This document shows, piece by piece, positions 38,015-64,000 of a stretch of DNA of 64,000 bases. Origin of the DNA: Eubacteriales bacterium (GTDB lineage Bacteria; Bacillota; Clostridia; Oscillospirales; QAKW01). A model generated the notes under the pieces. The model was given only the letters and a program-made list of their open reading frames with translations. It ran no database searches and was not told the origin of the DNA. The DNA is taken from assembly GCA_045546995.1 (NCBI GenBank), contig JAZQDW010000008.1, forward strand, positions 3,253-67,252. Direction: 5' to 3'. Made by a program: the position numbers and the translations under genes. How positions within the stretch are numbered: position 1 is the stretch's first letter; each line of letters begins with the position of its first letter.

Positions 38015-38019
38015 TCTAT

Positions 38020-38048
38020 TGACTTCCCGTCCCATCGATGATATAATC
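38020..38048 (+). promoter_or_regulatory. sigma-A type promoter
   Basis: TTGACT, 17-nt spacer, TATAAT, immediately after the GH2 stop. Confidence 0.5.
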
Positions 38049-38073
38049 CAAAACAGAAAAACGAGGTGATCGG

Positions 38074-39738: not shown

Positions 39739-39744
39739 AGCACA

Positions 39745-39781
39745 TAAAAAATCGCGAGAAAAATTTCTCGCGATTTTTTTA
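39745..39781. terminator. bidirectional terminator
   Basis: AAAAAATCGCGAGAA-aaa-TTCTCGCGATTTTTTT lying between convergent genes. Confidence 0.8.
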
Positions 39782-42093: not shown

Positions 42094-42242
42094 AACAGAA
42101 GCCTCCGTATTTATTTTACAATTTTATTATAATTTCTTCTCCGGGAAAGGCAATGCAAAAGAAAGACCATATTTTATGTTTTTGGGACATTTAGTTGAAA
42201 ATTGCAAAACCTGCCGTTATACTGTAAAAGAGGTGATTTTCG

Positions 42243-43985: not shown

Positions 43986-44071
43986 AGTTTTCCCTCCTTG
44001 TTCTTTGTGTATATTATAAATCAACATTTGGTGATTTTCAAGACAAAAAATCTGCCAAAACCGCCCTTTTG

Positions 44072-44100
44072 TTGACAATTGTTATACAAATCAGTATAAT
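44072..44100 (+). promoter_or_regulatory. consensus sigma-A promoter of the LicC-like gene
   Basis: TTGACA, 17-nt spacer, TATAAT. Both hexamers match the consensus exactly. Confidence 0.65.
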
Positions 44101-44142
44101 TATCTCTTGGAAAACCATTATTACGAAAGGATGATTATACAA

Positions 44143-44883
44143 ATGAAAGCAGTTATTTTCAACTCCGGTTTGGGCAACCGTATGGGTGAGTTTACCCAAA
44201 CCCACCACAAATCCATGGCTCGTCTCAAGGATGGAGAGACCATTTTTCACCGTCAGATCCGTCTGCTGAGCGCCGAGGGCATCAAGGAATTTATCATCAC
44301 CACCGGCCCCTTTGAGGACCAACTCAAGGCGGAGGCCGCCGATTTCCCCGAGCTGAGCTTTACCTTTGTCCGCAACGACATTTACGATAAGACCAACTAC
44401 ATCTACTCCATGTTTCTGGCCAGAGAGTATATGAACGACGATCTGGTATTCCTGCACGGCGACCTGGTATTTAACCGCAAGCTGGTCCACGACGTGCTGG
44501 CCTGCGCCGACGCCAACACCGCCACCGTCAACTTCAAAAAGGCTTTGCCCGAAAAGGACTTCAAGGGCAGAGTTAAGGACGGCAAGGTGCTGGAAGTCTC
44601 CATCCACATCTTTGACGAGGATTGCTTTGCCTTCCAGCCCTTCTATAAGATGGAAAAGGCCACTGCCGCCGCCTGGATCGGCAAGGTAGTGGAGTTTATC
44701 CACAAGGGCGAGGACAAATGCTATGCTGAGAATGCCCTCAACGAGATCTTCCCCGCGCTCAACGTGCGCGCCTTCTCTTACGAGAACTATTACATCGACG
44801 AAATCGACAATCTGGACGATTATGCCCGTGTTACCGCCGAGATCCTGTCCTTTGACGAGGCAGACAAGGACATTTTTGCCTGA
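44143..44883 (+). CDS. LicC-like sugar-/alcohol-phosphate nucleotidyltransferase
   Basis: 246 aa from MKAVIFNSGLGNRMGEFTQTHHKSMARL (GxGxRM...K loop). ATG 44131 is an alternative start. The long antisense ORF 44038..44928 is rejected. Confidence 0.75.
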   Translation: MKAVIFNSGLGNRMGEFTQTHHKSMARLKDGETIFHRQIRLLSAEGIKEFIITTGPFEDQLKAEAADFPELSFTFVRNDIYDKTNYIYSMFLAREYMNDDLVFLHGDLVFNRKLVHDVLACADANTATVNFKKALPEKDFKGRVKDGKVLEVSIHIFDEDCFAFQPFYKMEKATAAAWIGKVVEFIHKGEDKCYAENALNEIFPALNVRAFSYENYYIDEIDNLDDYARVTAEILSFDEADKDIFA

Positions 44884-48700: not shown

Positions 48701-50627
48701 TGCCTGCACCGTAATTTGCAGCAAAGGTAGTGCCGGCTGTCCCGGTTTTATCGGTAGTTACCGCTACATCTGTGTTATACTTGCCGCTGAGGTTTGCGGC
48801 GGGAAGGCCATTGTTGTAGAAAACCTTTGCCGTGGCGGTGACGTTTTCGCCATGGAGATATGCGTTTTTATTTGTATTCAGCAAAACGGTGTGTGCACGG
48901 TCATCCTCGGAAGTAACAGTGACGTTTTTGCTGGATACAACGGTACCGTTGATGTTTAAGTTGATGGTCAGTGCGCCGGGCTTGATGTTTTCAAGCGGGA
49001 TTTCAGCTGTGTATGCGCCGCCGGTAATATTTACTTCCATAGTTTCGATATCGCGGCTGAAAACGAGAGAGGCCACAGGTTCGTCTGCATCACTATAACG
49101 TTTGCTGATTGTTCCCCAAACAGTGATGGTGTCGTCAACGTTGTAACGTGTGCTGTCGCTGTACAGGAAGGCGTTGAACATATTTTGCGGGCCGGCAGAC
49201 GAAGCGGGTGTTTCGCAACAAAGGATGTACGGGAGCAAGTTGTTGGCATTGATCGTTGCATAGGCGTAACGTTCGTCGCTCTCGGTTTTGATCGTGGCCA
49301 GACCCAAATCATTTGTTTGCGCACCGGTATTGCCTATTTTGATTTTTGCGCCGGAAACAGGCTGTTCGGTTTGCGTGCTGTTGATCCAGAACGTATGCGT
49401 ATCATTGTTGAAAGAACAGTAAACCGCCAAGTCGTGTGACTGAAGCAATTGATAGCACTTCAGTTCATTCCACAGGATTTCTGCGACGTAATAGCCGGTT
49501 TCCAGTTCCTTGGGATAATTAAGATAGTAGGTGTCTTTTATCAGTGGGTCGGGGATGGCCGAGACGGAGAATTGTGCATATACCGTACTGTCTCCACGCT
49601 TGACATCGGTAATGATGGCGGAGGACAAAACGGTGTCGTGGCCATATTTCTTGTGCAATTCAAGATAGGTGTCGGAGTCGGGTAATTTGTGCAGCGTTAC
49701 GTCGGCAGTTGTCGTAGTGGTTCCTTTTGCGCCGATGGTTACGCTGGGGGCTTGTGTTGTTGAAAACGTATTTGCAATGTCAAAGGCGTTCTTTTTGACG
49801 TAAATATACCGATCGCTGTCTCCTGCGCCGGTAGTGAAACTGAAGGTGGTGGATTTGCCTAAAGCATGTTCCTCGTTACCATAAATGGAGCCATCGATTG
49901 TGACGGTATACGTGGTGTAGGGGAGCAGTGCTTCTTTGGGCGTAAATGTCCAGATGCGGCCTTTGTGGGTAAAGGTTCCTTCGACTTCGGGATAAATACT
50001 GAAATATTCCTGGAAGGCGTTGACACCGCTTTCTGTGAAGGTTACGTTGATTGCGGCTTTACGGTCAATATCGTCAGCGTGGTTTTGAGGAAAATATGAA
50101 TCAATGGCAAATGCTGTTTCGGTTTGTAACGACCAACGGAAGGTGGTGGCGTTGTCAACAAGAGAGTTGACGGTGTAACCGGCATTTTTTTGCAAGGGCT
50201 CGTCAAAGCTGAGGGTGAATCGGTTCGTGCCTTTTTTCTTGATGGAGTATGAAACCTCGGGAAACAGGGAAATGTGTTCCTCCAACTGTTTGGCGCTCAT
50301 GCTTTCTTTTGTGATTACGGTAAGGGTCGTATTGCACGCGACGCCTTGCTGTCCTTGCATATCGGCGGATACATATGTGATGGGACTAAGAATTGCTGTA
50401 TCACCGGATAAATTGTTCGAATTATCAAATCTAAAATAATTGTAGGTGTACCATCCCAATCCGGTTAAAATCAGCAAGGAAATGGCGACAAAGGAGATCC
50501 ATTTTGTAAGCAACCCGTTTTTCCTGTTTCTGGCAGTATCTGCCTGTTGCACAATTTCGCTCAGCGTAGTTGCGGGATCCGGTTTGATTTGGGTATTGAG
50601 CGCAGATAAAAGTTCTCGTAATAACAT
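45780..50627 (-). CDS. 1615-aa single-pass membrane protein: short cytoplasmic N-tail, TM, very large Ig-like/beta-sandwich ectodomain with an alpha-helical repeat region (alpha-2-macroglobulin-like architecture; candidate anti-sigma/sensor)
   Basis: The N-terminal 42 aa are cytoplasmic and the TM helix is WISFVAISLLILTGLGWYTY (nt about 50439-50501). Many beta-rich repeats of about 90-110 aa follow. A helical region (about nt 46450-47100) contains LTQLYSNGGMRIDHV..., INGGYCAY... and LYFALAYAYSGNQQKA. No CxEQ thioester motif occurs after any Cys. The start lies 1 nt after the sigma-factor stop, with AGGAGAA upstream. Confidence 0.8.
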   Translation of the reverse strand: MLLRELLSALNTQIKPDPATTLSEIVQQADTARNRKNGLLTKWISFVAISLLILTGLGWYTYNYFRFDNSNNLSGDTAILSPITYVSADMQGQQGVACNTTLTVITKESMSAKQLEEHISLFPEVSYSIKKKGTNRFTLSFDEPLQKNAGYTVNSLVDNATTFRWSLQTETAFAIDSYFPQNHADDIDRKAAINVTFTESGVNAFQEYFSIYPEVEGTFTHKGRIWTFTPKEALLPYTTYTVTIDGSIYGNEEHALGKSTTFSFTTGAGDSDRYIYVKKNAFDIANTFSTTQAPSVTIGAKGTTTTTADVTLHKLPDSDTYLELHKKYGHDTVLSSAIITDVKRGDSTVYAQFSVSAIPDPLIKDTYYLNYPKELETGYYVAEILWNELKCYQLLQSHDLAVYCSFNNDTHTFWINSTQTEQPVSGAKIKIGNTGAQTNDLGLATIKTESDERYAYATINANNLLPYILCCETPASSAGPQNMFNAFLYSDSTRYNVDDTITVWGTISKRYSDADEPVASLVFSRDIETMEVNITGGAYTAEIPLENIKPGALTINLNINGTVVSSKNVTVTSEDDRAHTVLLNTNKNAYLHGENVTATAKVFYNNGLPAANLSGKYNTDVAVTTDKTGTAGTTFAANYGAGIATDPLSKCAPTLFTTEFIYGVEENNVTSPILVFNTDEYIYGTVSKKTPIGCTLDIQTGKIDLQKLNALSDAAFKKTCTDLSTADYAGEPTTKDVTIEVHDVSFERKQSGTYYDTTSNKVQLKYSYTEKDTVVKTLPVTTAGGKLTLNDLSLPTASGYRYLKLITKDSAGRECVYTCYVDQPVNHDAKAFKFECPTQAAYNEVISLKVYDPSAKQALKDGNFIYHLNNGKGSNSFVTEENNASFTYTTDLGAKIGISGVYFSGQHYFSIEPTTLERSDKTSLLTATVSAEKESYQPGEKAKLTLQVNDPDGKPVKNAPFAFNLTTANSAVLSGTAVLNDLTQSSISVPVANVAVETSEADKDAVNDQLVSVGFVSGKTDKNGTAVIQITVPEENDQWIGQAVVITPTTQVGCAITKIKTEADLFVKNHTDNVFAKDSDCIIAFTAGGSNLSDNSKTEINVYSGTALHTTKTIQHGTGLQTVNLGTLPIGDYTCKITVTGKKATTVEFDFSVKEGLQAVENAALLERANGNVSTIILSDKENQRFAALLTQLYSNGGMRIDHVIGRAYAASVLSGTEEDGTSKIADILKAYEINGGYCAYTDQKEPDLLLTAQIASLFPASVDSVKTSGYFDSILTNVDSEYEQVLCALWGKAALGEAVEKDLAYYYAEGNGLTNEQQLYFALAYAYSGNQQKANDIYINRIKTMLIPQEEKLMIKPDNADHTDLCNNLLSLLTARISAKEADQILSYALINDAPDTFNGIEKISFVKEYTPALSGKNTVKLGIFDIGEQSITYAKCAYKIAKINADNDAFSIVDETESTLCTAHVTSNATDFSKDGLKSGAIVCSVPTQAGLNTDVTISITLTPELMATGTLRIHLPTGLKLASIKSNATHWDYTLSPDLSDISIISESKANTTVTLTCKAALLGKFVIEPIIIDGDDKRFVSTSSTISIVDPAALPPADPLAPNAEAPAPVA

Positions 50628-50628
50628 A

Positions 50629-51177
50629 TCAGTTCTCCTGTACTTGTCCTTTGGTCAATTCGGTACGAATGGCCTTTGTTAAGAAATAAACGTAATTGCC
50701 GGCATCGTCGACCTCAATGCCAAGTTCGGCGGCGATTTTATCAAATCCGAAGCCAAACAGATAGTGCAGATAAAAAGCTCGGCGATATTCCAACGGATAG
50801 GTGGCGACAAAATTGAGAATATTCTGTAATTTGCCCTGTAATTCAGTCTTACTTAAAACAGGGGGGATCTCTGCGTCGAGCTCCTTTTCCAATAAGGATT
50901 TATATCTTTTGTATTTTTTGCCGCTATCGACCGGAGTTTCCTCCAAAGATGCAGTGTAAACGTTGATGTTTTTTTGAATAATGCGATATAATTGCGTACG
51001 CTCGTTTTTTTGCTGCTCGTTGGAATCGAAGCCTTTGTACAACTCTGCGAAACTGTTTTTGAGAATTTCTGCAGTGGCGCTCATGTCAGCGGTTTTTGCC
51101 AGCGTGTAGCCATAGGCCTCCTGATAGGTCTTTTTGAAAAATTCTTCAAATAAAATTCGAATTTGCTTCCGTTTCAT
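50629..51177 (-). CDS. ECF-like sigma-70 family factor
   Basis: 182 aa. Region 2-like FEEFFKKTYQEAYGYTLAKTADMSATAEILKNSFAELYK and region 4 HTH LEYRRAFYLHYLFGFGFDKIAAELGIEVDDAGNYVYFLTKAIRTEL. Confidence 0.75.
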   Translation of the reverse strand: MKRKQIRILFEEFFKKTYQEAYGYTLAKTADMSATAEILKNSFAELYKGFDSNEQQKNERTQLYRIIQKNINVYTASLEETPVDSGKKYKRYKSLLEKELDAEIPPVLSKTELQGKLQNILNFVATYPLEYRRAFYLHYLFGFGFDKIAAELGIEVDDAGNYVYFLTKAIRTELTKGQVQEN

Positions 51178-52834: not shown

Positions 52835-53095
52835 TGCAATATTCACAAAAATTGAGACGAAAAGCAATTTTCTCTACCGTAAAAAAACGTGAAAAATGGC
52901 AAAAAAAATTAAAAAAATCGTATATTTTTATTAATAAATTGTTGAATTTGTTTATATAATATGTTAAACTAATTAATATTAAGATGTATTATTTTGTTCT
53001 ATCGTCGTGATTTTATTCAACCTGCAAATCTAAAGTCCGGTGAACCGGCAAAATAACCATCTAGTTTTGTAATCAAAATGTTTGGAGGTAACGCA

Positions 53096-56000
53096 ATGTC
53101 AAACAGAAGTGCAATCAAAAAAATGTTTCGGTCTTCTGTCTGTCTGATGATGGTGTTGATTATGTGCCTGTCGATGGCCGTAGTCGCATTTGCAGACGGG
53201 GAAACGACCGGAGCCGATGACTCCTATCTTGCCGGTCAGCAATCTGCTGATTCCGCCGAGACGGAGAGTTATCTTACCGGTTTTGTCAGAGAAAATCTGT
53301 ATAACGATTACTATGACAAATACCTGCAGTACGATATGATACTTCCCACCGTTGAGGTGGATGGCCCTGCTTTTGCTGCTGCTACCGCAAAAGTTAAAAG
53401 TGAGGCTGTTTTTGAGGAAGCTACTACCGTTGCTGTAATTGAAAAAGAGGGTGTGATTGATTATACGATCAATGTTCCCACGACCGGTATGTATGCTTTG
53501 AAGATGAATTATTTTCCCATCGAGGATCTCAACGGCAACGATATCGAGATTGCTGTCAAGATCGATGGCAAAACTCCTTTTGAGGAAGCGGCAGCGCTGA
53601 ACCTGAAGAGAGTCTGGATCAACGAGTTGGTCGACGGCAAGATTTCTACCGACAGTATCGGTAATGAATTGCTGCCCAATCAGATTCAGAGTTCTCGTTG
53701 GGTTTCCAAAGATCTGTTTGATGCAGAAGGCAGATATTTGGATTCTTTCAAATTCTATCTCACTGCCGGTGAGCATAAACTGAGCCTGATTGTTGAAAAC
53801 GGTTTGTTTGCTCTTGACTCTATGGTTCTTCATAATGAAGGTGCCATGATTTCTTACGATGAGTATCTTAACAATGCTGTTTACAGTGGCGCTCAAGATA
53901 CTGCTGTTCAGTTGGAGCCCGTTGAAGCTGAACAATTCGTTGACAAGAGTGACTCCATTATTCAGATGGCATTTGACCGCAGTGATGCTTTGGTTAGACC
54001 TTACAGCATCAGCACGACCAAATATAATACTTTGGGTGGTACCAACTGGCAGAAGAGCGGTAACCGCGTCAACTGGACAATTGATGTTCCTGAAGATGGT
54101 TTGTATGAACTGTCTTTCCGTTACAGACAGTCTTATCAACGTGGTATGGCTTCTTACCGTACCCTTTATATTGATGATGTCGTGCCCTTTGCTGAGGCTC
54201 GTTGCATCGCATTTGATTACAAAACCGGTTTCCAGTATATGGTTGCAGGCCGTGAGCTGGAAGATGGTACAAAAGAGAACTATAAGTTCTATTTAACTGC
54301 CGGTAAACACACGCTTTCTTTGGAGGCAAGTATTGGTGAAATGTCCAATACTTATCGCGAAGTTGAGAGCATTATCTACCAATTAAATTATATATACAGA
54401 AAAATCGTTCTGATCACCGGTATTACTCCTGATAATAATCGTGACTATCAGCTGTTTACCAGAATCGCCGATTTGGAATCGATGATGACCTCTGCTATCG
54501 AATCCATGAGAACCACAAAGCAGAACGTTGACGCTTTGAATGATGGTAACGGTGGCGGTGATGCTGAGATTTTGAACACGCTGGTTGTTCAGATGGAAGA
54601 CTTCGTTAAGAAGCCCTATTCCATTCCCAGCCGCTTGGACACCTTTAAGGATAACATCAGTACTCTGGGTAACTGGCTGCTGGACATTCGTGATCAGCCT
54701 CTCTGTATTGACAGATTCTTCCTGGCCGGATCGCAAGCCGGTCTGAAACCTCAGAAGAGCAACTTCATTCAGGGTGTTTCTCACGAAATCAGAGGATTTA
54801 TTTCTTCCTTCGTTGATGACTATACTGCTGTTGGTGGCTCCGCCGATGAGGATGAGCGCGCTATCAGCGTTTGGGTTGGTACCGGTCGTGACCAGGCAAT
54901 TGCACTGAAAACATTGACGGACAACTATTTTACTCCCGAAACCAATATCGGTGTTAACATCTCTCTGGTTCCTCTGGGCATTTTGTCCAAGGCGATCATT
55001 GCAGGTAAGGGCCCCAACGTTGCACTTCACGTTTCCAGAACCGAGCCGATCAACCTTGGTATCCGCGGTGCCTTGGTCGATATTCAAGATATGGAAGGTT
55101 ACGAGGACGTACAGGCACGCTTCTCTAAGTATGCGATGGCGCCTTACACCTTTACTTCCACGCTGGAGGATGGCACTCAGTACAGCAAGACCTTTGGTCT
55201 GCCCGAGACTCAGAACTTCGAAATGATGTTCTATCGTACAGATATTTTTGCTGAACTTGGCATTAAGGTTCCCAACACTTGGGATGAATTTGATGCAATT
55301 CTGCCCGTAATTCAGTCCAACAACATGACCGTTGGTTTGAATCAAAACACCGGTGGCGGTATGTTCTTTACTTTGATTCAGCAGAACGACGGCTTGATCT
55401 ACACTCCCGACGGTTCCAAAACCTGCTTTACTGAGCAGTATGCAGTTGACGCCTTTACTAAATGGACCGACTATTACAGAATGTACGATTTTCCGTTGAC
55501 CTACAGTTTCTATGCTCGCTTTAGAAGCGGTGAAATGCCTCTGGCATTCCAGCCCTATTCTCAGGCCACCTTTATTGAGGAGTCTGCACCTGAATTGCGT
55601 GGCTTATGGGCAATGGCACCCGTTCCCGGCACTTTGGATGAGAACGGCAAGCTGAACCGTACGGAAGAATCCTCCGGTTTGACCGCCAGTATCATTATTA
55701 AGAGCATTGCTAAGAGTGAAGCTAAGAGACAGCAAGAGGAAGCAGATTCCTGGACCTTTATTAAATGGTGGACTTCTGCTGACATTGCTGCACAGTATGG
55801 TAAGCGTGTAGAAATGGCTATCGGCCCTGTTGCCCGTTATACCACCGCCAATCTGGAAGCCTTTGATATGATCGGCTGGGATCACGATCACGCCGTCAGC
55901 ATTAAAGAGCAGAGAGCCAGTGTTAAGGAAATTCCCGAAGTAATTGGTGGTTATTACGTATCCCGTATGGTAACCAACGCATTCCGTGCAGTTACCAACG

Positions 56001-56113
56001 ACTACAGCAACCAGCGCGAGATGCTGTTCTATTATGACGATCAAATTAACAATGAGATTTGGAGAAAACGTCAAGAGTACAATTTCTCCATTCCGGAGGA
56101 GGCTGATATTTAA
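53096..56113 (+). CDS. giant ABC-transporter solute-binding protein with two tandem CBM-like beta-sandwich domains
   Basis: 1005 aa from MSNRSAIKK (GGAGG 7 nt upstream). It has an N-terminal signal/anchor. The internal duplication pairs IDYTINVPTTGMYALKMNYFP...FKFYLTAGEHKLSL with VNWTIDVPEDGLYELSFRYRQ...YKFYLTAGKHTLSL. The C-terminal about 430 aa resemble a family-1 sugar-binding protein (ISVWVGTGRDQAIALKTL...). Confidence 0.8.
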   Translation: MSNRSAIKKMFRSSVCLMMVLIMCLSMAVVAFADGETTGADDSYLAGQQSADSAETESYLTGFVRENLYNDYYDKYLQYDMILPTVEVDGPAFAAATAKVKSEAVFEEATTVAVIEKEGVIDYTINVPTTGMYALKMNYFPIEDLNGNDIEIAVKIDGKTPFEEAAALNLKRVWINELVDGKISTDSIGNELLPNQIQSSRWVSKDLFDAEGRYLDSFKFYLTAGEHKLSLIVENGLFALDSMVLHNEGAMISYDEYLNNAVYSGAQDTAVQLEPVEAEQFVDKSDSIIQMAFDRSDALVRPYSISTTKYNTLGGTNWQKSGNRVNWTIDVPEDGLYELSFRYRQSYQRGMASYRTLYIDDVVPFAEARCIAFDYKTGFQYMVAGRELEDGTKENYKFYLTAGKHTLSLEASIGEMSNTYREVESIIYQLNYIYRKIVLITGITPDNNRDYQLFTRIADLESMMTSAIESMRTTKQNVDALNDGNGGGDAEILNTLVVQMEDFVKKPYSIPSRLDTFKDNISTLGNWLLDIRDQPLCIDRFFLAGSQAGLKPQKSNFIQGVSHEIRGFISSFVDDYTAVGGSADEDERAISVWVGTGRDQAIALKTLTDNYFTPETNIGVNISLVPLGILSKAIIAGKGPNVALHVSRTEPINLGIRGALVDIQDMEGYEDVQARFSKYAMAPYTFTSTLEDGTQYSKTFGLPETQNFEMMFYRTDIFAELGIKVPNTWDEFDAILPVIQSNNMTVGLNQNTGGGMFFTLIQQNDGLIYTPDGSKTCFTEQYAVDAFTKWTDYYRMYDFPLTYSFYARFRSGEMPLAFQPYSQATFIEESAPELRGLWAMAPVPGTLDENGKLNRTEESSGLTASIIIKSIAKSEAKRQQEEADSWTFIKWWTSADIAAQYGKRVEMAIGPVARYTTANLEAFDMIGWDHDHAVSIKEQRASVKEIPEVIGGYYVSRMVTNAFRAVTNDYSNQREMLFYYDDQINNEIWRKRQEYNFSIPEEADI

Positions 56114-57081
56114 TGGCAGCGGCTTTGAATAAAAAAGAAAAAGAACTTGAACTGCTTAAAAAGAAAAAATTATCCTTCTCTGAGAAGATGTCCCTTACGT
56201 GGCGTCAGATGAAGGAAGGCTATTGGAACTATATTCTGATGGCTCCGTTTTTGATCTTCTTTGCATTGTTCACTATTATTCCCGTTGTTTCTTGCTTTGT
56301 CTTGTCTTTTACCAGATATGACATCATCAATGCACCGATGTTCATCGGCTGGGATAACTATTTGAGAATGTTCCTCGAAGATGATGTTTTCCTGATCGCA
56401 TTGAGAAACACCATCGAGTTTGCAATCATTACCGGCCCGGTTGGTTACATTCTCTGCTTTGTGTTTGCGTGGTTTATCAACGATTTGCCGCCGTTTGGCC
56501 GTGCATTCTTCACCGTTTTGTTCTACGCACCTACACTTGCAAACATTTACTTTATCTTCCAGTACATCTTTTCCGGCGATATGTACGGTTTGCTGAACTC
56601 TACGCTGATTCAGCTCAACGTTATTTCTGAACCGATTCAGTGGCTACAAGATACAGACTATATGCTTACGATTTGTATCATCGTTCAGTTGTGGTGTAGC
56701 TTGGGTACCGGCTTCCTTGCGTTGGTCGCCGGCTTGCAGAGCTTGGATCCCGCATTGAACGAGGCCGGTGCAATCGACGGTGTCAGAAACAGATTCCAGG
56801 AATTGATTTACATCATTCTTCCGCAGATGGGTCCCTCGTTGATGTTTAGTGCTGTTATGCAGATCTCCAGCGCATTTGCAGTTGGTAGTATTTCTTCGGC
56901 ACTGGTTGGTTTCCCGTCTGTCGACTATGCAGCTCATACCATTGTGTTGCACGTTTCCGACTTTGCACATACTCGTTTCGAAATGGGTTACGCCGCAGCC
57001 TTGTCGGTCATCCTCTTCTTGATGATGCTTGGCTTTAAGGCAATTGTTAATCTCTTGCTTAAGAGATATTCTGATGATTAA
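56113..57081 (+). CDS. sugar ABC transporter permease (MalF/LplB-like), pair 1
   Basis: 322 aa with 6 TM helices and an EAA-loop-like region (LNEAGAIDGVRNRFQELIYIILPQM). Its start overlaps the SBP stop. Confidence 0.85.
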   Translation: MAAALNKKEKELELLKKKKLSFSEKMSLTWRQMKEGYWNYILMAPFLIFFALFTIIPVVSCFVLSFTRYDIINAPMFIGWDNYLRMFLEDDVFLIALRNTIEFAIITGPVGYILCFVFAWFINDLPPFGRAFFTVLFYAPTLANIYFIFQYIFSGDMYGLLNSTLIQLNVISEPIQWLQDTDYMLTICIIVQLWCSLGTGFLALVAGLQSLDPALNEAGAIDGVRNRFQELIYIILPQMGPSLMFSAVMQISSAFAVGSISSALVGFPSVDYAAHTIVLHVSDFAHTRFEMGYAAALSVILFLMMLGFKAIVNLLLKRYSDD

Positions 57082-57099
57082 GGAGGTGGAAAAAGAACT

Positions 57100-57954
57100 A
57101 TGTCAAAACTTAGAAGAAATAAAATCGCCATTATGGGCGATATCACAACTTATTTGTTGTTGTTGGTTTACGGTTTGCTGATGTCTCTGCCGTTGATTTA
57201 TGCGGTTTTGCAGGCGTTTAAACCTTACAACGAATTGTTCATTTTCCCGCCTCGGTTTTTTGTTAAAAACCCCACGATTTCAAACTTTACACAGTTGTTT
57301 GATCTCACGTCTTCTTCCTGGGTTCCGTTTTCCAGATACGTATTTAACTCTGTGTTGAATACGATTGTTGGTACGGTTATTCACATTCTTGCCGCCGCAA
57401 TGTGCGCCTATCCTTTGGCAAAGAACCAATTCCCCGGTAAGAAAATCATTTTCCAGATCGTAGTTTGGGCTTTGTTGTTCCACTCCGCTGTTCTTGAAGT
57501 TCCTACCTATTTGGTGATGGCTTACCTCGGCATCATTGATACTTATTTTGCATATTGGTTGCCCGAAATCGGTGCCACGATGGGTGTGTTCCTTTTGAAA
57601 CAGAATATGGATTCAATTCCCACTGCTATGATTGAGGCTTGTAAAATTGATGGTGCCAGTGAATGGACAATTCTTTGGAACATCATTATGCCTTGCGTCA
57701 AACCCGCTTGGCTGACTCTTGCCATCTTTGCATTCCAACGTAACTGGAACGCAACATCTTCTTCCTATATATATACTGAAACGCTGAAAACCCTGCCCGC
57801 TGCTTTGAGCCAGATCACAGCCGTTGGTAGTGTCAGCCGTGCCGGTGAAGCGTATGCGGCTTCTGTCATTATGATGATTCCTGCAATTATATTCTTCATC
57901 TTTGCACAAGGTAATACGGTTAAGACGATGTCGCATGCCGGTATTAAGGGTTAA
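57100..57954 (+). CDS. carbohydrate ABC transporter permease (MalG/LplC-like), pair 1
   Basis: 284 aa with the EAA loop MIEACKIDGASEWTILWNIIMP. Confidence 0.85.
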   Translation: MSKLRRNKIAIMGDITTYLLLLVYGLLMSLPLIYAVLQAFKPYNELFIFPPRFFVKNPTISNFTQLFDLTSSSWVPFSRYVFNSVLNTIVGTVIHILAAAMCAYPLAKNQFPGKKIIFQIVVWALLFHSAVLEVPTYLVMAYLGIIDTYFAYWLPEIGATMGVFLLKQNMDSIPTAMIEACKIDGASEWTILWNIIMPCVKPAWLTLAIFAFQRNWNATSSSYIYTETLKTLPAALSQITAVGSVSRAGEAYAASVIMMIPAIIFFIFAQGNTVKTMSHAGIKG

Positions 57955-57969
57955 GGAGGGGAGTTACAT

Positions 57970-59520
57970 ATGAATAGAAAATTTAAAAAGCTGAGTGTAC
58001 TCCTGATCTCCGTTATTCTTGTAAGTATGCTGATCACAACCGGTGCATTTGCTTATATTCCTTACACCGGTTACAACTTTGACTTTTATGGCGAAATCGT
58101 AAACGGTCCTTCTGGCTATGTTCCCGAAAAGATCATTTATGGTTCTGACGTCGGCCTGGAGTCTTTTGTTAATCCCTTGGATATGTATATTACCAAGGAT
58201 AACCGAATTCTTGTGGTTGACAGTGGTGGTGCAGGCGCTACCTCTCGTGTTATCATTATGGATTCCAACTTCAAACTGATTAAAATCATTGATAAGTTTA
58301 TCGGTTTGAACGGGGAACCGCTGAACGTTATCAATGCAAACGGTCTTTGCGTTGACAAGGAAGGTTTTATTTATCTTTGCGACCCCGACAGCTTCCGTGT
58401 TTTGAAGTTTGACACAAACGGTCAGGTGCATTTGATTTACGGTGCTCCTCCTAAAGAGTTTGTTGACGACGCTTTCGTTTATCGTCCTCAAAAGCTGGGT
58501 ATTGGTATCAATGGTTCGATCTTTGTTATCTCCAAGGGTTGTACCGACGGTATTATGGAGTTTGATACCAAGGGGTCGTTTGTAAGATTCTTTGGCGCTC
58601 CTGAGGTTGAACTTTCTGTTACCGACTATTTGAATATTTATTGGAGAAACATCTACCGTGTTATCGGTGGCGATAGCGTAGACGCTTACTTTGCCACCTA
58701 TGTTCCCAGTGAATTCGCCAATATGTCCGTTGATGATAATGGTTTCGTTTACACAATGATTGCTGCAAACGAAAAATCCACGGACGAGATGTATAAACTG
58801 AACTTCCAGGGTACCAATATTTTGGATCCTGCACAGAAGAGTACCAGTAAAAAGACCGCCGCTTTGTCTGCAAACTACGGTGACTTGATCACTCGTTCAA
58901 CCTCCGGCGCGGGTAACGTATTTAACGACGTTTGTCTTGATTCGGATGGTTTCTTCACTTTACTTGATACCAATCTTGGTCGTGTTTTTGAGTACGACAA
59001 GGAAGGTAACCTGATTTTTGTTTACGGTAATAAGGGTAATCAGATCAATCAGGTTCAGAATGGTCTGCTTGTCAGCCCATCTGCAATCATCAAATTAGGG
59101 GATAAGACTGTTGTATTGGATGCCGGTACCGGCTCGATCACTGTTTTCAAACTGTCTGATTTCGGTGAACAGTTGCATGAAGCTGTCAGCCTGTATAACG
59201 AAGGTAAATACGATTTGGCTGAAGAGCCCTGGAGAAACGTACTGAAATACGATGCCAATTCCGAACTTGCACATATCGGTCTTGGTAAGGTACATTATTT
59301 GCGTGGTAATTATGCGGAAGCATTGGATGAGTTTAAACTTGGCAATGACCGCAACAATTATTCCAGAACTTACAAATTGTATCGTGACGATGTAATCAGA
59401 AGTAACTTCACCTGGGTTGTTACCATTATCGTTGTTTTGTTGATCCTGCTGATCGTCTGGAAAAAATATGGTAAGCAGATCAAGGCTCGTCTTAAAGCAA
59501 AAAAGGGAGGTGATCAATAA
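57970..59520 (+). CDS. extracytoplasmic NHL-repeat beta-propeller + TPR protein with N-terminal signal/TM and C-terminal TM anchor
   Basis: 516 aa. NHL-like blades (ITKDNRILVVDSGG..., GLCVDKEGFIYLCDPDSFRVLKFD..., ...FVISKGCTDGIMEFD...), a TPR-like segment (LGKVHYLRGNYAEALDEFKLG) and a C-terminal helix WVVTIIVVLLILLIVW followed by a basic tail. Confidence 0.7.
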   Translation: MNRKFKKLSVLLISVILVSMLITTGAFAYIPYTGYNFDFYGEIVNGPSGYVPEKIIYGSDVGLESFVNPLDMYITKDNRILVVDSGGAGATSRVIIMDSNFKLIKIIDKFIGLNGEPLNVINANGLCVDKEGFIYLCDPDSFRVLKFDTNGQVHLIYGAPPKEFVDDAFVYRPQKLGIGINGSIFVISKGCTDGIMEFDTKGSFVRFFGAPEVELSVTDYLNIYWRNIYRVIGGDSVDAYFATYVPSEFANMSVDDNGFVYTMIAANEKSTDEMYKLNFQGTNILDPAQKSTSKKTAALSANYGDLITRSTSGAGNVFNDVCLDSDGFFTLLDTNLGRVFEYDKEGNLIFVYGNKGNQINQVQNGLLVSPSAIIKLGDKTVVLDAGTGSITVFKLSDFGEQLHEAVSLYNEGKYDLAEEPWRNVLKYDANSELAHIGLGKVHYLRGNYAEALDEFKLGNDRNNYSRTYKLYRDDVIRSNFTWVVTIIVVLLILLIVWKKYGKQIKARLKAKKGGDQ

Positions 59521-60191
59521 TGAAATTTTTTAGTGCAATTAAAGATTTTTGCGTACGTCTTTACGAACGTGAAAAGGTTAAGAAAAATCCGTTATTGATC
59601 CTGACTCATCCCATTGACACGGTTGAGGAAATGAAAGAAAAGCGTAATGGTTCTGTGTTTTGGGCCACCGTTCTTCTGTTCCTCTTCACCTTGTCCGAAA
59701 TTATTGTAACCGTTGCAAAAGGCTTTTTGTTTAATTCTGCTAAGGCTGAAGATTTCAATCTGTTCTATGTTTTGATGCGTTCTTGCTTCCTTGTACTGTT
59801 GTACGTTGTTGGAAACTGGGCACTGTGTACCTTGCTGGAAGGCGAGGGTAGAATGGTAGACATCTACGTTTACACCTGTTACTGCCTGACGCCTCTCACG
59901 ATATATAGAATTTTTGATACGATTTTTTCCAATGTGGTTACAACGGATGAATACGTTTTCATCAACATGGTCAATGCGTGTGCTTGGATATGGTTCATTG
60001 CTATGCTGACCTTCTCGATGAAGCGATTGCATAACTACACAATGGGTAAAACGATTCTGTGTATGCTGTTTTCTGTGGTAGCAATGGCAATTATTTTCTT
60101 CTTGATTTATTTGTTTGTTATCTTGATTCAGCAGTTGGCAGTATTTGTAATGACGATCTATACTGAGATTGTCATGAGAACCATAGCATAG
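59520..60191 (+). CDS. Yip1-family polytopic membrane protein
   Basis: 223 aa with an N-terminal soluble segment of about 40 aa, then 5 hydrophobic helices. Size and topology are typical of bacterial Yip1-domain proteins. Its start overlaps the upstream stop (TAATG). Confidence 0.6.
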   Translation: MKFFSAIKDFCVRLYEREKVKKNPLLILTHPIDTVEEMKEKRNGSVFWATVLLFLFTLSEIIVTVAKGFLFNSAKAEDFNLFYVLMRSCFLVLLYVVGNWALCTLLEGEGRMVDIYVYTCYCLTPLTIYRIFDTIFSNVVTTDEYVFINMVNACAWIWFIAMLTFSMKRLHNYTMGKTILCMLFSVVAMAIIFFLIYLFVILIQQLAVFVMTIYTEIVMRTIA

Positions 60192-60207
60192 GAAGGAGGA
60201 GTATAAA

Positions 60208-62532
60208 ATGAAAAAATTTAACAGACTTTTATCTTTGCTCCTGGCACTTCTTATGTGCGTTTCAATGTTCTCTATGTTTGCTTTTGCAGCAGATGAGGAG
60301 GAGGCTGAAGGTGATGGCCCTGCCACCACTGAAACCGAATCCGAAGGCGGCGAAGGGGAATCCGGCGGTATCAAGCAGAAGGTAGATCCTTCCAGATTCC
60401 AGTCTTCCAGTACGCAAGCCATCCCTGCTTCCTATACCAAGGTTTCTGAAAACAAAAATCTGGCACTGTATCTCGATTATTTGAGCGGCGAATATGCTCT
60501 GCTTGATAAGAGAAATAACACCTCTTTGTTTTCTAACCCCCAGGATCGTAAGCAGGACAATGTAGCGAACAGTGAGACTGAGCGTATTGCTTCTTCTCAT
60601 TTAGGCGTTTCGTTTATTACCTCTTCTTTTAAAACCATCGAAGTTACTTCTCTCGATGCTAAAATCATTACCGAAAAGTTTGGCGATAGTCAGATTGTTT
60701 CTTACTTCTTTGATTCCGATTCTTCTTTCTTTATCATTCCTGTTATGTTCACGCTGAAGGATGATTATCTGGAAGTCGAATTGCTGATCGATTGTATCAA
60801 CGAAATGTCTGATTCTCGTGTTTTGACCGTAAGTCTGATGCAGGTTTTTGCTGCCGGTAACCCGAAAGATCAGGGCTATCTGCTGTTGCCTGACGGTATG
60901 GGCTCGTTGATGAAGTTTAATCAAAACCTGTCCAATATTGACGTTTATAACGGTTGGATCTATGGTGAGGATCCCACTGCAAAGGCGGCAATTAACGAAT
61001 ACAACTACGGCCGTGATCTGACTGAGGGTGTTCGCTTGCCTATATATGGTGTCAAGAAAAATGACAATGGTTTTCTTGCTATCATTACTGAATGCGAATC
61101 CAACGTTATGCTGAAGGCGTACAATTCCGGTATGCTGAACAGTTATAACTTTGTTTATCCCACCGTTACGATTCGTAATTCTCAGACCCGTCGTACCTCC
61201 ACCGGTAATACCGGTGCCGGTGTTTACTATTCCGACGAGTTGCCTGAAAATTTGAAGATCCGCATTTACCCGTTGGTTGGCAATGACGCTAATTACGTGG
61301 GCATGGCCAAAAAGTATCGTCAGTATTTGATCAATGACCTGGGTATGGCTCCTTTGAGTGAGGATGCCGGCGTTCCTATGAACGTTACGATGATCGGCGC
61401 CTACAAGAGAACCAAGCATTTTCTTGGTTTCCCTTATACCGGTGTTGATACGATGACCACCTTTGATCAGGCCGGTGAAATTTTGACTGATCTGGATGAT
61501 AAGGGTGTAGATAACATGATCTGCGGTATGCTTGGCTGGAATAGCGGCGGTTTGGAAAGTGCTGTTAGCACGACCTTTAACCCCGAAAAGAAGCTGGGCG
61601 GCAAAAAAGCGGCAAATGCTTTGCTCGAAACCGCAGATAGCATCGACGTTCCGTTGATGTTTGACGTGGATTTGGTTCATTACTATACCGCTTCCGGTAA
61701 GTATAAGAAATTTAATTCTACTGTTTATGGTTTGGACTTGGCTCCTACAGCAATGTTCCCCTTTATCATTTCTGTAAACCGTGTTGATAAGAACCGTGAA
61801 CCTCACTATTTGTTCCATCCGACCGCAATGCTGAGCGTTGCCAGTGAATTTGTTGATGCCGCTTCCGGCGTTGGTATTGAAAACTTCTCGTTTGAGAGCG
61901 TTGGCTCCGAACCCTATCCTGCGTACAATACAGAAGATGTTTCCACCCGTGATCAGACCGTTGCTGACTTTACTCAGGTCTTCACCAATACCGCAGAAAA
62001 GACTGACGGTATTGTTTCTACCGGTAACGGTAACGCTTACGTGTTCCCTTCGGCAAACAATGTTACGGATGCTCCTTTGTACAGCAGCCATATGTATTTT
62101 GCCGAAACCGAGGTTCCGTTCTATCACATTGCATTGCGTGGTTTGACTCGCATTTCCGGTCCCGCTCTTAACTTAAGTGCCGAGAAGGAAGATTTGATTC
62201 TTCGATCTGCTCAGGTCGGTGCCGGTCTGTACGCTGTTTTGTCGTATGAGTCTTCCAGCAACCTGAAGGATACGTCTTATAACTATTATTATTCAACTCA
62301 GTACTCTCTGCTTGGCGAAGAGATCGTCGATGCTTATAAGAGACTTGATGTTGTATATGATGCTGTTGGTACAGCTGCCATTACCGATTATCAAATCGTT
62401 TCCGAAACGTTGAAGGTTACCACCTTTGATAACGGCGTGAAGGTAATTGTTAACTATGGTGAAAAGGACGCAACTCATAACGGTGTTAAGATTGCGGCCA
62501 ACGATTTTGTTGTAGTAGGAGGTGACAAATAA
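60208..62532 (+). CDS. secreted 774-aa protein of unknown function (DUF5696-like by recollection of the family and its gene context)
   Basis: Signal peptide, then an acidic low-complexity linker (ADEEEAEGDGPATTETESEGGEGESGG), then a large mixed alpha/beta region. I recognised no catalytic motif. The DUF5696 assignment comes from memory of the family, not a search. Confidence 0.55.
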   Translation: MKKFNRLLSLLLALLMCVSMFSMFAFAADEEEAEGDGPATTETESEGGEGESGGIKQKVDPSRFQSSSTQAIPASYTKVSENKNLALYLDYLSGEYALLDKRNNTSLFSNPQDRKQDNVANSETERIASSHLGVSFITSSFKTIEVTSLDAKIITEKFGDSQIVSYFFDSDSSFFIIPVMFTLKDDYLEVELLIDCINEMSDSRVLTVSLMQVFAAGNPKDQGYLLLPDGMGSLMKFNQNLSNIDVYNGWIYGEDPTAKAAINEYNYGRDLTEGVRLPIYGVKKNDNGFLAIITECESNVMLKAYNSGMLNSYNFVYPTVTIRNSQTRRTSTGNTGAGVYYSDELPENLKIRIYPLVGNDANYVGMAKKYRQYLINDLGMAPLSEDAGVPMNVTMIGAYKRTKHFLGFPYTGVDTMTTFDQAGEILTDLDDKGVDNMICGMLGWNSGGLESAVSTTFNPEKKLGGKKAANALLETADSIDVPLMFDVDLVHYYTASGKYKKFNSTVYGLDLAPTAMFPFIISVNRVDKNREPHYLFHPTAMLSVASEFVDAASGVGIENFSFESVGSEPYPAYNTEDVSTRDQTVADFTQVFTNTAEKTDGIVSTGNGNAYVFPSANNVTDAPLYSSHMYFAETEVPFYHIALRGLTRISGPALNLSAEKEDLILRSAQVGAGLYAVLSYESSSNLKDTSYNYYYSTQYSLLGEEIVDAYKRLDVVYDAVGTAAITDYQIVSETLKVTTFDNGVKVIVNYGEKDATHNGVKIAANDFVVVGGDK

Positions 62533-63665
62533 TGGCCAAGAAAATTGATGTTGCTCAACTTGAGGCTGCCAGAGATCTCGCATTTGCTGAGATCGATGAA
62601 AAGTTAAAATCACTTGCTCCTACGAGTAAAGAAGCAAAAAAGCTCAGAAAGCGTCGTCTTAAAATTGCTAAGAAAACGCAAAAACTGAAGATTAAAGCTT
62701 CTAAAAGAAAAGTTGATATCGATGCTGAAAAGAAGAAAAAGAAGAAGGTTGATCCCTCTCTTCCCAAATTCAAGAAAAAGCGCGGCGGCATTTCCTATGA
62801 ACAGCGTCAGGGATTTGTGGGCTTTATGTTTGTCCTTCCTTGGTTTATGGGCTTCTTGTTCTTCTTCCTGCAGCCCTTGCTGATGTCGCTGAACTTCTCT
62901 TTCTCAAAGATCGATTTGTTCAACAACTACGCTACCACTTGGGCAGGCGCCCAAAACTATCTGGATGCTTTCAAAAATGCTGACTTTATCCAGAAAATGT
63001 CCACTACTTTGGGTGATCTGCTCGTTAACGTACCTGTTGTAATCGTTTTCAGTTTGTTTGTTGCTGTACTGTTGAATCGTAAGTTTATCGGTCGTGGTGT
63101 AGCACGTGCAATTTTCTTCTTGCCTGTTATCGTTACCACCGGTGTTGTTATGAAGGCATTTAACGCAGAGTCTGACGCTTCTAAAGTTATGGACGGTGAT
63201 ATCGCCGGCGGTATCCTCTTTGAGGTGACCGACGCAACTGAAATTCTTCAGAATTCCGGTTTGCCCGAAAGCATTTTGGAGTATATGACACAGGTTTCCA
63301 ATCGAATCTTTAACATCGTTTGGGATTCCGGTATTCAGATTCTTTTGTTCTTGGCTGCTTTGCAGGGAATTTCTCCCTCTTTGTACGAGGCATCTGATGT
63401 TGAGGGTGCTACCGCTTGGGAAACCTTCTGGATGATCACGTTCCCCAGTGTTGCTCCTATCATCGTTGTAAACGTTGTTTACACGATCATCGACTCGTTC
63501 TCCAGCAACGATAACGTTTTGTTGACGTTAATTCAGTCCAAGATCAACCAGTTCGACTTTTCGACCGCTTCTGCAATGTCGTGGATGTACTTCGTGGTTA
63601 TCTTTGTAATCATTGCTGTAATCTACGTCTTGCTGCAGAAAGTGCTCGTAAAGAATAACGAGTAA
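62532..63665 (+). CDS. sugar ABC transporter permease (MalF-like), pair 2, with Lys-rich N-terminal extension
   Basis: 377 aa. The first about 85 aa are extremely basic (KKLRKRRLKIAKKTQKLKIKASKRKVDIDAEKKKKKKVDPSLPKFKKKRGG). A 6-TM core follows, with the EAA-like motif LYEASDVEGATAWETFWMITFP. Confidence 0.8.
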   Translation: MAKKIDVAQLEAARDLAFAEIDEKLKSLAPTSKEAKKLRKRRLKIAKKTQKLKIKASKRKVDIDAEKKKKKKVDPSLPKFKKKRGGISYEQRQGFVGFMFVLPWFMGFLFFFLQPLLMSLNFSFSKIDLFNNYATTWAGAQNYLDAFKNADFIQKMSTTLGDLLVNVPVVIVFSLFVAVLLNRKFIGRGVARAIFFLPVIVTTGVVMKAFNAESDASKVMDGDIAGGILFEVTDATEILQNSGLPESILEYMTQVSNRIFNIVWDSGIQILLFLAALQGISPSLYEASDVEGATAWETFWMITFPSVAPIIVVNVVYTIIDSFSSNDNVLLTLIQSKINQFDFSTASAMSWMYFVVIFVIIAVIYVLLQKVLVKNNE

Positions 63666-63680
63666 AGGAGGGATATTGAA

Positions 63681-64000
63681 ATGAGTCTTATTAAATCTAT
63701 TAAGCATCAGGTTACCAAGTCTGAAAAAGGTAAGACTACTGACCGTCGTGCCATTCTTGCCATTCTGGGCAAGATTGTAGTTGGCCTTGCAGTTGCAGTT
63801 GTTTTGATCGGTTTGAGCTATATCGTTTTGTATCCCTTGATCTTCTGTATTTCTTGGGCTATTCGTGATCCGATCGATGTTTACGATTCCACTATCATCT
63901 TGATTCCCAAGCATTTTACGATCAATAACTTCTTCGAAGCTTGGGACTTTATGGATTATGGTACCGCTTTGGTCAATACGTTTAACACTGCAGTTTGGCC
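63681..64000 (+). CDS. carbohydrate ABC transporter permease (MalG-like), pair 2 (partial; runs off the right edge)
   Basis: Hand translation from ATG 63681 (AAAGGAGGG upstream) gives MSLIKSIKHQVTKSEKGKTTDRRAILAILGKIVVGLAVAVVLIGLSYIVLYPLIFCISWAIRDP...IPKHFTINNFFEAW... It is not in the ORF track because no stop lies in the window. Confidence 0.75.
   Translation, partial: MSLIKSIKHQVTKSEKGKTTDRRAILAILGKIVVGLAVAVVLIGLSYIVLYPLIFCISWAIRDPIDVYDSTIILIPKHFTINNFFEAWDFMDYGTALVNTFNTAVW

Follow-up and report, generated by a model that had tools for sequence, protein, structure and literature searches.

What could be the function of an operon that encodes a giant binding protein, two pairs of sugar-type permeases, and three further proteins between these pairs? 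This question is raised by a stretch of 64,000 nucleotides (the window hereafter) from an Eubacteriales bacterium (contig JAZQDW010000008.1, positions 3,253 to 67,252 of the forward strand), in which eight open reading frames (ORFs), all on the + strand, extend from 53096 to beyond 64000, at the coordinates given by an earlier reading of the sequence (the original prediction). We have found that these eight genes constitute a cassette, whose order and single strand are kept in every related locus with enough contig (more than 70 complete loci). With moderate confidence, we lean towards the view that this is an ancient and widely spread cassette of Bacillota and their wall-less relatives, which builds a machine for carbohydrate capture and import at the cell surface. 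The features of the operon are as follows.

52931..52960, + strand: promoter-like site (TTAATA, 18-nt spacer, TATAAT), ~135 nt upstream of gene 1; consensus match only, 10/12 positions
53096..56113, + strand: gene 1, extracytoplasmic binding protein, 1005 aa, N-terminal signal or anchor (Pfam, profile, self-BLAST)
53456..53788, + strand: gene 1, module 1 resembling carbohydrate-binding modules (CBMs) of type CBM35/6, first repeat copy, residues ~121-231 (self-BLAST, profile)
54068..54322, + strand: gene 1, CBM35/6-like module 2, second repeat copy, residues ~325-409 (self-BLAST, profile)
54983..55804, + strand: gene 1, core of the solute-binding domain, SBP_bac_8 (Pfam, residues 636-909 of the 1011-aa ORF)
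56113..57081, + strand: gene 2, permease P1a, MalF/UgpA-like, 322 aa, EAG/EAA coupling loop
57100..57954, + strand: gene 3, permease P1b, MalG/UgpE-like, 284 aa, EAA loop
57970..59520, + strand: gene 4, NHL/TPR protein, 516 aa, signal peptide, extracellular propeller, two TPR-like repeats and C-terminal transmembrane (TM) helix (Pfam, AlphaFold2 (AF2), Foldseek)
59520..60191, + strand: gene 5, Yip1-family polytopic membrane protein, 223 aa (PF04893)
60208..62532, + strand: gene 6, secreted DUF5696 protein, 774 aa, DagB/GH129-like fold (Pfam, AF2, Foldseek, hhalign)
62532..63665, + strand: gene 7, permease P2a, 377 aa, EAA-type loop, Lys-rich N-terminal extension
63681..64000, + strand: gene 8, permease P2b, cut by the window end; 336 aa in orthologs

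The order, that is, giant binding protein, P1a, P1b, NHL/TPR, Yip1, DUF5696, P2a and P2b, is kept while the DUF5696 identity falls from 81% to 21% and the GC content ranges from 0.31 to 0.62. DUF5696 homologs at 66%, 28%, 27% and 23% identity each lie in a locus with this order, and the two most distant ones found, at 21–22% identity, also sit in a cassette. The original prediction had raised the question of neighbourhood conservation across Firmicutes; the answer goes far beyond that range, with one order in every complete locus.

For the distribution, we have scanned one genome per species with a query from an 11-sequence DUF5696 subset. The species-representative genomes hold at least 570 relatives (570 of 600 pattern matches encode one), and the loci of the best 80 of these genome matches were annotated with hidden Markov models from five cassettes. 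The NHL/TPR protein is represented by 1070 representatives of 50%-identity clusters at E<=1e-30. Carriers include Paenibacillus (many species), Cohnella, Gorillibacterium, Gracilibacillus, Lederbergia, Oscillospiraceae/Ruminococcaceae and other Clostridia metagenome-assembled genomes (MAGs), and Acholeplasma; two cassette contigs have 61–62% GC. The full cassette, with NHL-TPR and Yip1 fused, is also found in wall-less Mollicutes, namely Acholeplasma sp. (L005 and L006) and Candidatus Izimaplasma (P0035).

The surroundings of the cassette are much more variable than its core. Directly upstream and on the same strand, 41 of 70 related loci encode an ordinary binding protein of ~460 aa, and therefore the commonest form of the cassette has two binding proteins for two permease pairs. 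The earlier remark that a single binding protein serves two permease pairs holds for the window's clade (the window and its close orthologs), where a nicotinate phosphoribosyltransferase (NAPRTase) gene takes the place of the upstream binding protein, but it does not hold for the family as a whole. Downstream, the neighbour genes encode glycoside hydrolases (GH) of families GH10 (8 times), GH30 (7), GH26 (6) and GH43 (3), further binding proteins (9), and also GH5, GH9, GH51, GH127 and GH2. The most distant cassettes are flanked by a GH32 gene with dockerin and by GH94, and the Acholeplasma cassette L005 adjoins two GH30 genes, a LacI regulator and an uncharacterised 1037-aa protein. In most other genomes, the neighbours of the cassette are hydrolases for plant polysaccharides, regulators of the AraC or two-component type and additional sugar-binding proteins. 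In the window's clade, no hydrolase or regulator is adjacent to the operon, which is flanked by the NAPRTase and by radical-SAM / lactate dehydrogenase genes. Overall, with flanking enzymes that differ from genome to genome, the cassette has the appearance of a substrate-neutral chassis.

Some assemblies carry at least two cassettes, i.e., Paenibacillus sp. LHD-117 (L012, L045) and the Bacillota MAG OH_SBB_71 (L032, L042), as would be expected if the copies specialise on different glycans. In L083 (Paenibacillus sp. 598K), the NHL and Yip1 genes are split into several ORFs, owing either to draft-assembly frameshifts or to a decaying copy.

Are the eight genes expressed together? The junctions at 56113, 59520 and 62532 are TAATG overlaps, the remaining four intergenic gaps are 18, 15, 16 and 15 nt in gene order, and a GGAGG-type Shine-Dalgarno sequence precedes each of the eight genes. 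For gene 1, GGAGG lies 7 nt 5' of the ATG at 53096 and not before the longest-ORF ATG at 53078, and because of this position the start at 53096 is favoured; the gene caller used the equivalent 1005-aa start in the ortholog locus L087 (81% identical). The visible part of P2b is 87% identical to its full-length ortholog in L087. In that locus, a strong terminator with a 13-bp stem stands 15 nt after the eighth gene, so the transcription unit should consist of the eight genes. Promoter-like sites number 3 in the region, against 2.2 expected in shuffles. A regulatory RNA in the leader was rejected, since no Rfam family reaches the threshold there. The original prediction of a tight eight-gene operon on one strand is borne out by the ORFs, the overlaps or short gaps, the promoter-like site and the L087 terminator, and the Pfam matches (SBP_bac_8, BPD_transp_1, NHL, Yip1 and DUF5696) agree very closely with its domain calls. 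Inside the + genes there are also antisense ORFs of 320–508 aa on the - strand, at 53099-54139, 54383-55345 and 60601-62127, which are without support and are best read as by-products of codon usage.

What would the giant protein bind? The C-terminal half of the gene 1 protein matches SBP_bac_8 (PF13416, 61.4 bits, cut-off 27), and its C-terminal 425 residues are a sugar-type solute-binding domain, whose sequence matches in the PDB are sugar-binding proteins, with Lin1841 as the best solved relative (E=4.7e-13). The N-terminal half contains the internal duplication that had been noticed before: in self-BLAST, residues ~121-231 match residues ~325-409 with 26% identity over 112 columns (E=1e-5), and this alignment includes FYLTAGEHKLSL / FYLTAGKHTLSL. 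With an N-terminal profile of 46 orthologs, the second module matches the CBM35 of cycloisomaltooligosaccharide glucanotransferase (E=3.6e-9), which supports the earlier assignment of tandem CBM6/35-type sandwiches, and the first module (positions 74-147) matches the CsxA CBM35 and CBM6 modules at 4e-4 to 0.03. As a single sequence, the protein reaches 20–23 bits for CBM_35, under the 28-bit cut-off, and its Golvesin_C match is also below the cut-off. Positions 440-510 of the profile match designed coiled coils, which indicates a putative helical stalk.

No lipobox was found in the gene 1 protein, and a lipobox-like feature occurs in only 8 of 73 large binding proteins (L012-L086). The absence of a lipobox is unusual for Gram-positive binding proteins. 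Most of these large proteins begin with a basic stretch and one long hydrophobic segment, a pattern that suggests an uncleaved signal anchor rather than lipid attachment. Between the gene 1 protein and its L087 ortholog, the C-terminal half is 95% identical and the N-terminal half 83%. Over the whole cassette, the comparison with L087 shows that DUF5696 and the CBM half evolve fastest, and P1a/P1b and the binding domain slowest.

Two divergent type-I MalFG-like translocators of the ATP-binding cassette (ABC) type are encoded per cassette. PF00528 (BPD_transp_1) is above the cut-off in genes 2, 3 and 7, and the best NCBIfam matches of the permeases are of the UgpA/UgpE and MalF/MalG types, far below the equivalog cut-offs. 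The EAA-type coupling loops are kept in all four permease families (74–78 sequences), in the forms LyEAGA.DG (P1a), EAAkIDGA (P1b), YEaakiEGAT (P2a) and EEAA.iDG (P2b). P1 and P2 permeases are 21–22% identical (P2a versus P1a, 21%), and judged by their sequences the two pairs are ancient paralogs, not recent duplicates. P2a carries a Lys-rich cytoplasmic N-terminal extension of ~90 aa (62532-62810); its length is 377 aa here, 376–381 aa in L001/L087 and ~300 aa in Paenibacillus.

How, then, would the translocators be energised? No ORF with Walker A and LSGGQ motifs exists anywhere in the 64-kb window. Such an ORF lies within 10 kb in 7 of 87 related loci, where it is mostly of exporter type (~740 aa), ABC_tran is matched by 3 of 69 downstream genes, and no dedicated MalK-type ATPase is found in the related cassettes. 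Firmicutes CUT1 importers commonly share an orphan ATPase, such as MsmX of B. subtilis or MsmK of streptococci, so a missing ATPase gene is ordinary. The original prediction was right that the window holds no ATPase, but the oddness it saw in this disappears, since related cassettes likewise lack the MalK type.

The gene 4 protein matches NHL (PF01436) with 27.9 bits (cut-off 20). Its AF2 model (pLDDT 84.6) begins with a signal peptide, and the six-bladed propeller (residues 34-395) contains a helical insert. Four TPR-like helices (397-457) and a long helix that holds the TM segment 478-496 follow. The TPR part reaches 27.4 bits with Pfam TPR_16, under the cut-off of 32.7, and matches consensus-TPR proteins of the PDB at E=1.9e-9. 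The top Foldseek matches are the NHL domains of TRIM71, Thin, Lin41, TRIM2 and Brat (E ~2e-15; target TM-score 0.75–0.80 for TRIM71, Thin and Lin41); enzymes come only lower in the list, for example peptidylglycine-hydroxyglycine lyase and virginiamycin B lyase, and the sensor propeller of PknD is matched too. No glycoside hydrolase or polysaccharide lyase is matched in this fold search. The suggestion that the NHL/TPR protein is a novel polysaccharide-active enzyme is not supported, as its best fold matches are non-enzymatic NHL propellers.

The gene 5 protein, with four to five hydrophobic segments, matches Yip1 (PF04893) with 55.4 bits (cut-off 28.6) over model positions 3-172 of 173, and its start codon overlaps the stop codon of the propeller gene. 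Of the first 86 loci, 15 encode NHL-TPR and Yip1 as a single fused protein. Among the best 150 cluster representatives for NHL, 81 have a length of 670 aa or more, with the match to the query confined to the first ~450–520 residues, and on this basis, i.e., length and match range, they are counted as fusions. The fused proteins are of 670–750 aa, and PF04893 is recorded in several of them. By this count, the two proteins would be fused in about half of the family. The topology fits such a fusion: the cytoplasmic, basic C-terminus of the propeller protein leads into the cytoplasmic N-terminus of Yip1. Recurrent gene fusion is strong evidence that the propeller protein and Yip1 probably work together as one unit. 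A physical complex had been called plausible from the start; for the propeller and Yip1 an association is strongly implied by the fusion, and no fusion links the other parts. The precedent offered for a Yip1 protein as an ABC accessory was correct, since YknW is a Yip1-family protein that modulates the assembly of the YknXYZ ABC exporter in Bacillus (PMC4887032).

The DUF5696 protein raises the question of whether the cassette contains an enzyme. Gene 6 matches PF18952 (DUF5696) with 519 bits, and its AF2 model (pLDDT 86.7, pTM 0.87) consists of an N-terminal beta-sandwich, a (beta/alpha)8 barrel and a C-terminal beta-sandwich. The best Foldseek match is DagB/ZgGH129 (5opq, E=4.8e-31), followed by NagBb of GH129 at ~1e-25 (5wzq, E=8.4e-26), GH101 at ~1e-18 to 1e-20, and GH31/GH36 at ~1e-13. 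A single-sequence search of the PDB with DUF5696 gives no match; the family profile finds DagB at E=4.9e-13, and hhalign aligns the cassette family with the DagB family over 609 columns at 99.8% probability (E=3.6e-29). DagB and its relatives also carry PF18952, often with PF11308, for which the gene 6 protein gives no match at E<=0.01. Based on the fold, profile and hhalign matches together with PF18952 in DagB, DUF5696 is a GH129-like family with one characterised member. That member, DagB/ZGAL_3152 of Zobellia galactanivorans, is an exo-alpha-1,3-(3,6-anhydro)-D-galactosidase, which depends on each of the residues D202, D486, E517 and E531; D486 is the counterpart of the nucleophile in NagBb (PMC5698469).

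In the alignment, the DagB nucleophile D486 (D435 in NagBb) falls on N559 of the window's protein, and over 121 cassette proteins this column holds Gly, Asn, Asp, Ser or Ala, mostly Gly. E517 aligns to N607, in a column without a conserved acid, and E531 aligns to T620/D621, where most members have D, E or N. HMMER places D202 on D255, which is 94% conserved, and hhalign puts D202 in an insertion. The DagB subsite residues C198, K208, H347, W455 and Q566 are not conserved (hhalign). On the other hand, some acidic positions are well kept within the family: D229 and D255 are 94–98% conserved, 78% of the 121 sequences have an Asp in column 572, in the loop that follows the barrel strand 560-562 (Ala in the window's clade), and 82% have a Glu in column 669 (Gln in the window's clade). 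The column-669 Glu was set aside as a catalytic residue, as in the model it appears to lie at a helix end before a strand, on the non-catalytic face of the barrel. With 60–81% identity in DUF5696 among the members of the window's clade, the protein is under purifying selection there. Overall, DUF5696 is apparently a disarmed relative of GH129-like glycosidases, and we favour a putative role in binding or non-canonical processing rather than that of a classical retaining glycosidase. The 774-aa protein had been taken for an unknown and possibly novel enzyme; it is a full-length homologue of DagB, and the part of a novel enzyme finds no support in its nucleophile and acid/base positions, which are not conserved. 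Matches to characterised CAZy-type families had been considered for both this protein and the NHL protein; one is present for DUF5696, via DagB, and the NHL protein has no enzyme-like match.

Taken together, the cassette may work in the following way. The stalked, CBM-bearing binding protein would capture a polymer or a long oligosaccharide and hand fragments to one or both translocators, which an orphan MsmX/MsmK-type ATPase encoded elsewhere would energise. By analogy with YknW in YknWXYZ, NHL-TPR-Yip1 would serve as an assembly or scaffold subunit that keeps translocators and extracellular components together. DUF5696 would be a glycan-binding or non-canonical processing subunit. Specificity would be set by the fast-evolving CBM half, by DUF5696 and by the flanking hydrolases of each genome.

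Several points weigh against this view. The evidence for a complex is limited to what the NHL-Yip1 fusion would imply, and neither DUF5696 nor any of the permeases is found fused to another protein. As the window's clade has no adjacent hydrolase, regulator or second binding protein, a carbohydrate substrate can be assumed there only by way of homologs. The use of an orphan ATPase is assumed by comparison with other Firmicutes importers. It is in a profile-profile alignment with an identity of 15% that the catalytic residues appear to be lost, and in most of the family the column-572 Asp might, together with D229/D255, make up a catalytic centre at another place.

This last point leads to a different explanation, by which the locus would be a conventional Gram-positive polysaccharide utilisation locus (PUL). 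DUF5696 would then be an active, DagB-like extracellular exo-alpha-glycosidase with relocated catalytic residues, which trims glycans to oligosaccharides for the two transporters, and NHL-TPR-Yip1 would merely tether or position the enzyme. The full-length homology of DUF5696 to a proven glycosidase (PMC5698469) fits this explanation, as do the nearly invariant D229/D255 (D255 being aligned by HMMER to the essential DagB D202), the loop Asp in 78% of the family, and the purifying selection on DUF5696 within the clade. It also fits that, according to the DagB authors, the catalytic residues differ even between DagB and NagBb (PMC5698469). However, the position of the nucleophile common to those two enzymes is Gly, Asn or Ser across the cassette family, the window's clade has lost the column-572 Asp and the column-669 Glu as well, and a single alpha-glycosidase specificity is hard to square with neighbours as different as GH10, GH26, GH30, GH32, GH43 and GH94. 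We therefore regard an ordinary PUL as rather unlikely.

A role outside nutrition is less probable still. The system might recycle, sense or remodel an envelope or extracellular glycopolymer of the cell itself, with the propeller/TPR-Yip1 unit as a PknD-type sensor. The operon of the window's clade does lie among housekeeping genes (NAPRTase, radical SAM, lactate dehydrogenase) with neither a hydrolase nor a sugar regulator next to it, the fold search also matched the extracellular NHL propeller of the PknD kinase, and the binding protein is not a lipoprotein. Yet most other cassettes abut plant-polysaccharide hydrolases, AraC/two-component regulators and sugar-binding proteins, their occurrence in Acholeplasma and Izimaplasma speaks against a role in peptidoglycan or teichoic acid, and Pfam detects a signalling output domain in none of the eight proteins. 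We give very little credit to the explanation that two independent ordinary sugar ABC importers and three unrelated genes merely share an operon without forming a joint machine. The low identity of the P1 and P2 pairs would agree with independence, and so would the many loci with two binding proteins, one per pair. But more than 70 complete loci from different orders and phyla, with identities as low as 21%, all show one gene order on one strand, the junctions are of the translational-coupling type, NHL and Yip1 have been fused repeatedly, and among the loci read no cassette-type DUF5696 exists outside a cassette.

Within the capture-and-import view that we lean towards, a more specific proposal can be made, which we put forward only tentatively: the cassette might encode a hitherto unrecognised multi-subunit surface machine of single-membrane bacteria, a functional counterpart of the Sus-like systems. 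Here a Yip1 hub with an extracellular propeller/TPR arm would join the two ABC translocators, and would also tie in the stalked CBM-binding protein and a pseudo-glycosidase (a DagB/GH129 fold without the nucleophile). Such a machine would import long or branched oligosaccharides of many chemistries, with swappable flanking enzymes giving the specificity. A cell-wall conduit or wall-remodelling role was rejected: the cassette is present in wall-less Acholeplasma and Izimaplasma, and because of this occurrence in Mollicutes any role tied to the cell wall is unlikely.

The rest of the window contains further genes of note. A separate glycan-use cluster at 36263-43049 consists of a GH2 gene (36263-38014), a sulfatase (38074-39738), a weak BNR/sialidase-like ORF (39779-41296) and a DHDPS/NanA-like ORF (41164-42093), both on the - strand, and an AraC regulator (42243-43049). 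The earlier statement that the window contains no recognisable glycoside hydrolase was thus mistaken, with this GH2 gene at hand and DUF5696 also homologous to a glycosidase. Next to the cluster, an HTH_3 (XRE-type) domain is fused to an IspD-like cytidylyltransferase (43053-44078, - strand), which is an unusual fusion, and a MobA-like nucleotidyltransferase (44107-44883, + strand) stands back-to-back with it. At 45780-51177 (- strand), a 182-aa sigma-70 region-4-like protein is encoded directly upstream of a 1615-aa membrane-anchored protein with Big_5, BIg21 and alpha-2-macroglobulin-like matches; the pair, also present in L087, looks like a sigma factor paired with a giant surface protein.

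In addition, the G+C content drops from ~0.55 to 0.41–0.48 at ~44–45 kb and stays low to the window end; a compositional domain, an old transfer and an assembly join are the candidate causes. The low-GC part (the sigma and 1615-aa genes, NAPRTase and the cassette) shows synteny with L087, so the cassette does not form a separate island.

In the library searched, we have found no paper that describes this gene combination or mentions DUF5696/PF18952, and the transcriptome paper on Paenibacillus JDR-2 does not mention the cassette. The parts themselves belong to known families; what seems not to have been described is their invariant combination, as well as the double translocator, the presence of NHL-TPR-Yip1 on an importer and the disarmed subunit of GH129 type. 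There is a fair chance that the cassette is a distinct machine. The passage of large plant and host oligosaccharides through the Gram-positive envelope is much less understood than the Sus paradigm of Bacteroidota. An eight-or-nine-gene chassis in hundreds of species, from soil Paenibacillus and gut or rumen Clostridia to wall-less Acholeplasma, with xylanase, mannanase, GH30, GH32 or GH94 genes as its partners, would be a general component of glycan import and could serve as a useful marker when loci for glycan use are annotated. A bacterial Yip1 protein would also gain its first importer-linked role, a glycosidase fold has probably been taken over here for a non-catalytic subunit, and the Pfam family DUF5696 receives a context.

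Finally, how does the cassette compare with known systems? It resembles the CUT1-type MalEFGK2-like importers in its sugar-type solute-binding domain, its MalF/MalG-like pairs with EAA loops and the lack of an ATPase gene in the operon, as in those of Firmicutes that share an orphan ATPase. Unlike them, it combines two divergent permease pairs within a single operon and places three invariant extra genes between these pairs; its binding protein, of ~1000 aa, bears tandem CBM-like modules and a putative helical stalk but no lipobox. With DagB (5opq, 8rzk) and NagBb (GH129, 5wzn), DUF5696 shares the three-domain fold and full-length sequence homology, and DagB matches PF18952. However, the identity is ~13–15%, the cassette family does not keep DagB D486, E517 or the subsite residues at the positions aligned with them, and DagB sits in a Bacteroidota carrageenan locus instead of an ABC cassette (PMC5698469). 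With YknWXYZ of Bacillus, the cassette shares a Yip1-family membrane protein that is encoded together with an ABC transporter and presumably binds it (PMC4887032). YknYZ is a MacB-type exporter with a membrane-fusion protein, whereas the partners in the cassette are type-I importers, and the cassette Yip1 is coupled or fused to an extracellular NHL-propeller/TPR domain.

The widest comparison is with the PULs of Gram-positive bacteria (Roseburia, Eubacterium, Bifidobacterium) and the Sus-like systems. A Gram-positive PUL brings together hydrolase, transporter and regulator. Many cassettes do abut GH10, GH26, GH30, GH43 or GH32 genes and regulators, and an adjacent enzyme and regulator are indeed seen in many Paenibacillus and Clostridia loci. 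In the window and its close orthologs, by contrast, the cassette has neither a canonical hydrolase nor a regulator next to it, and its invariant core is made of transporter and accessory proteins, not of enzymes. It differs from the Sus-like systems in having no outer membrane to cross and no SusC/D; what it shares with all of them is a link between glycan binding at the surface and an importer.

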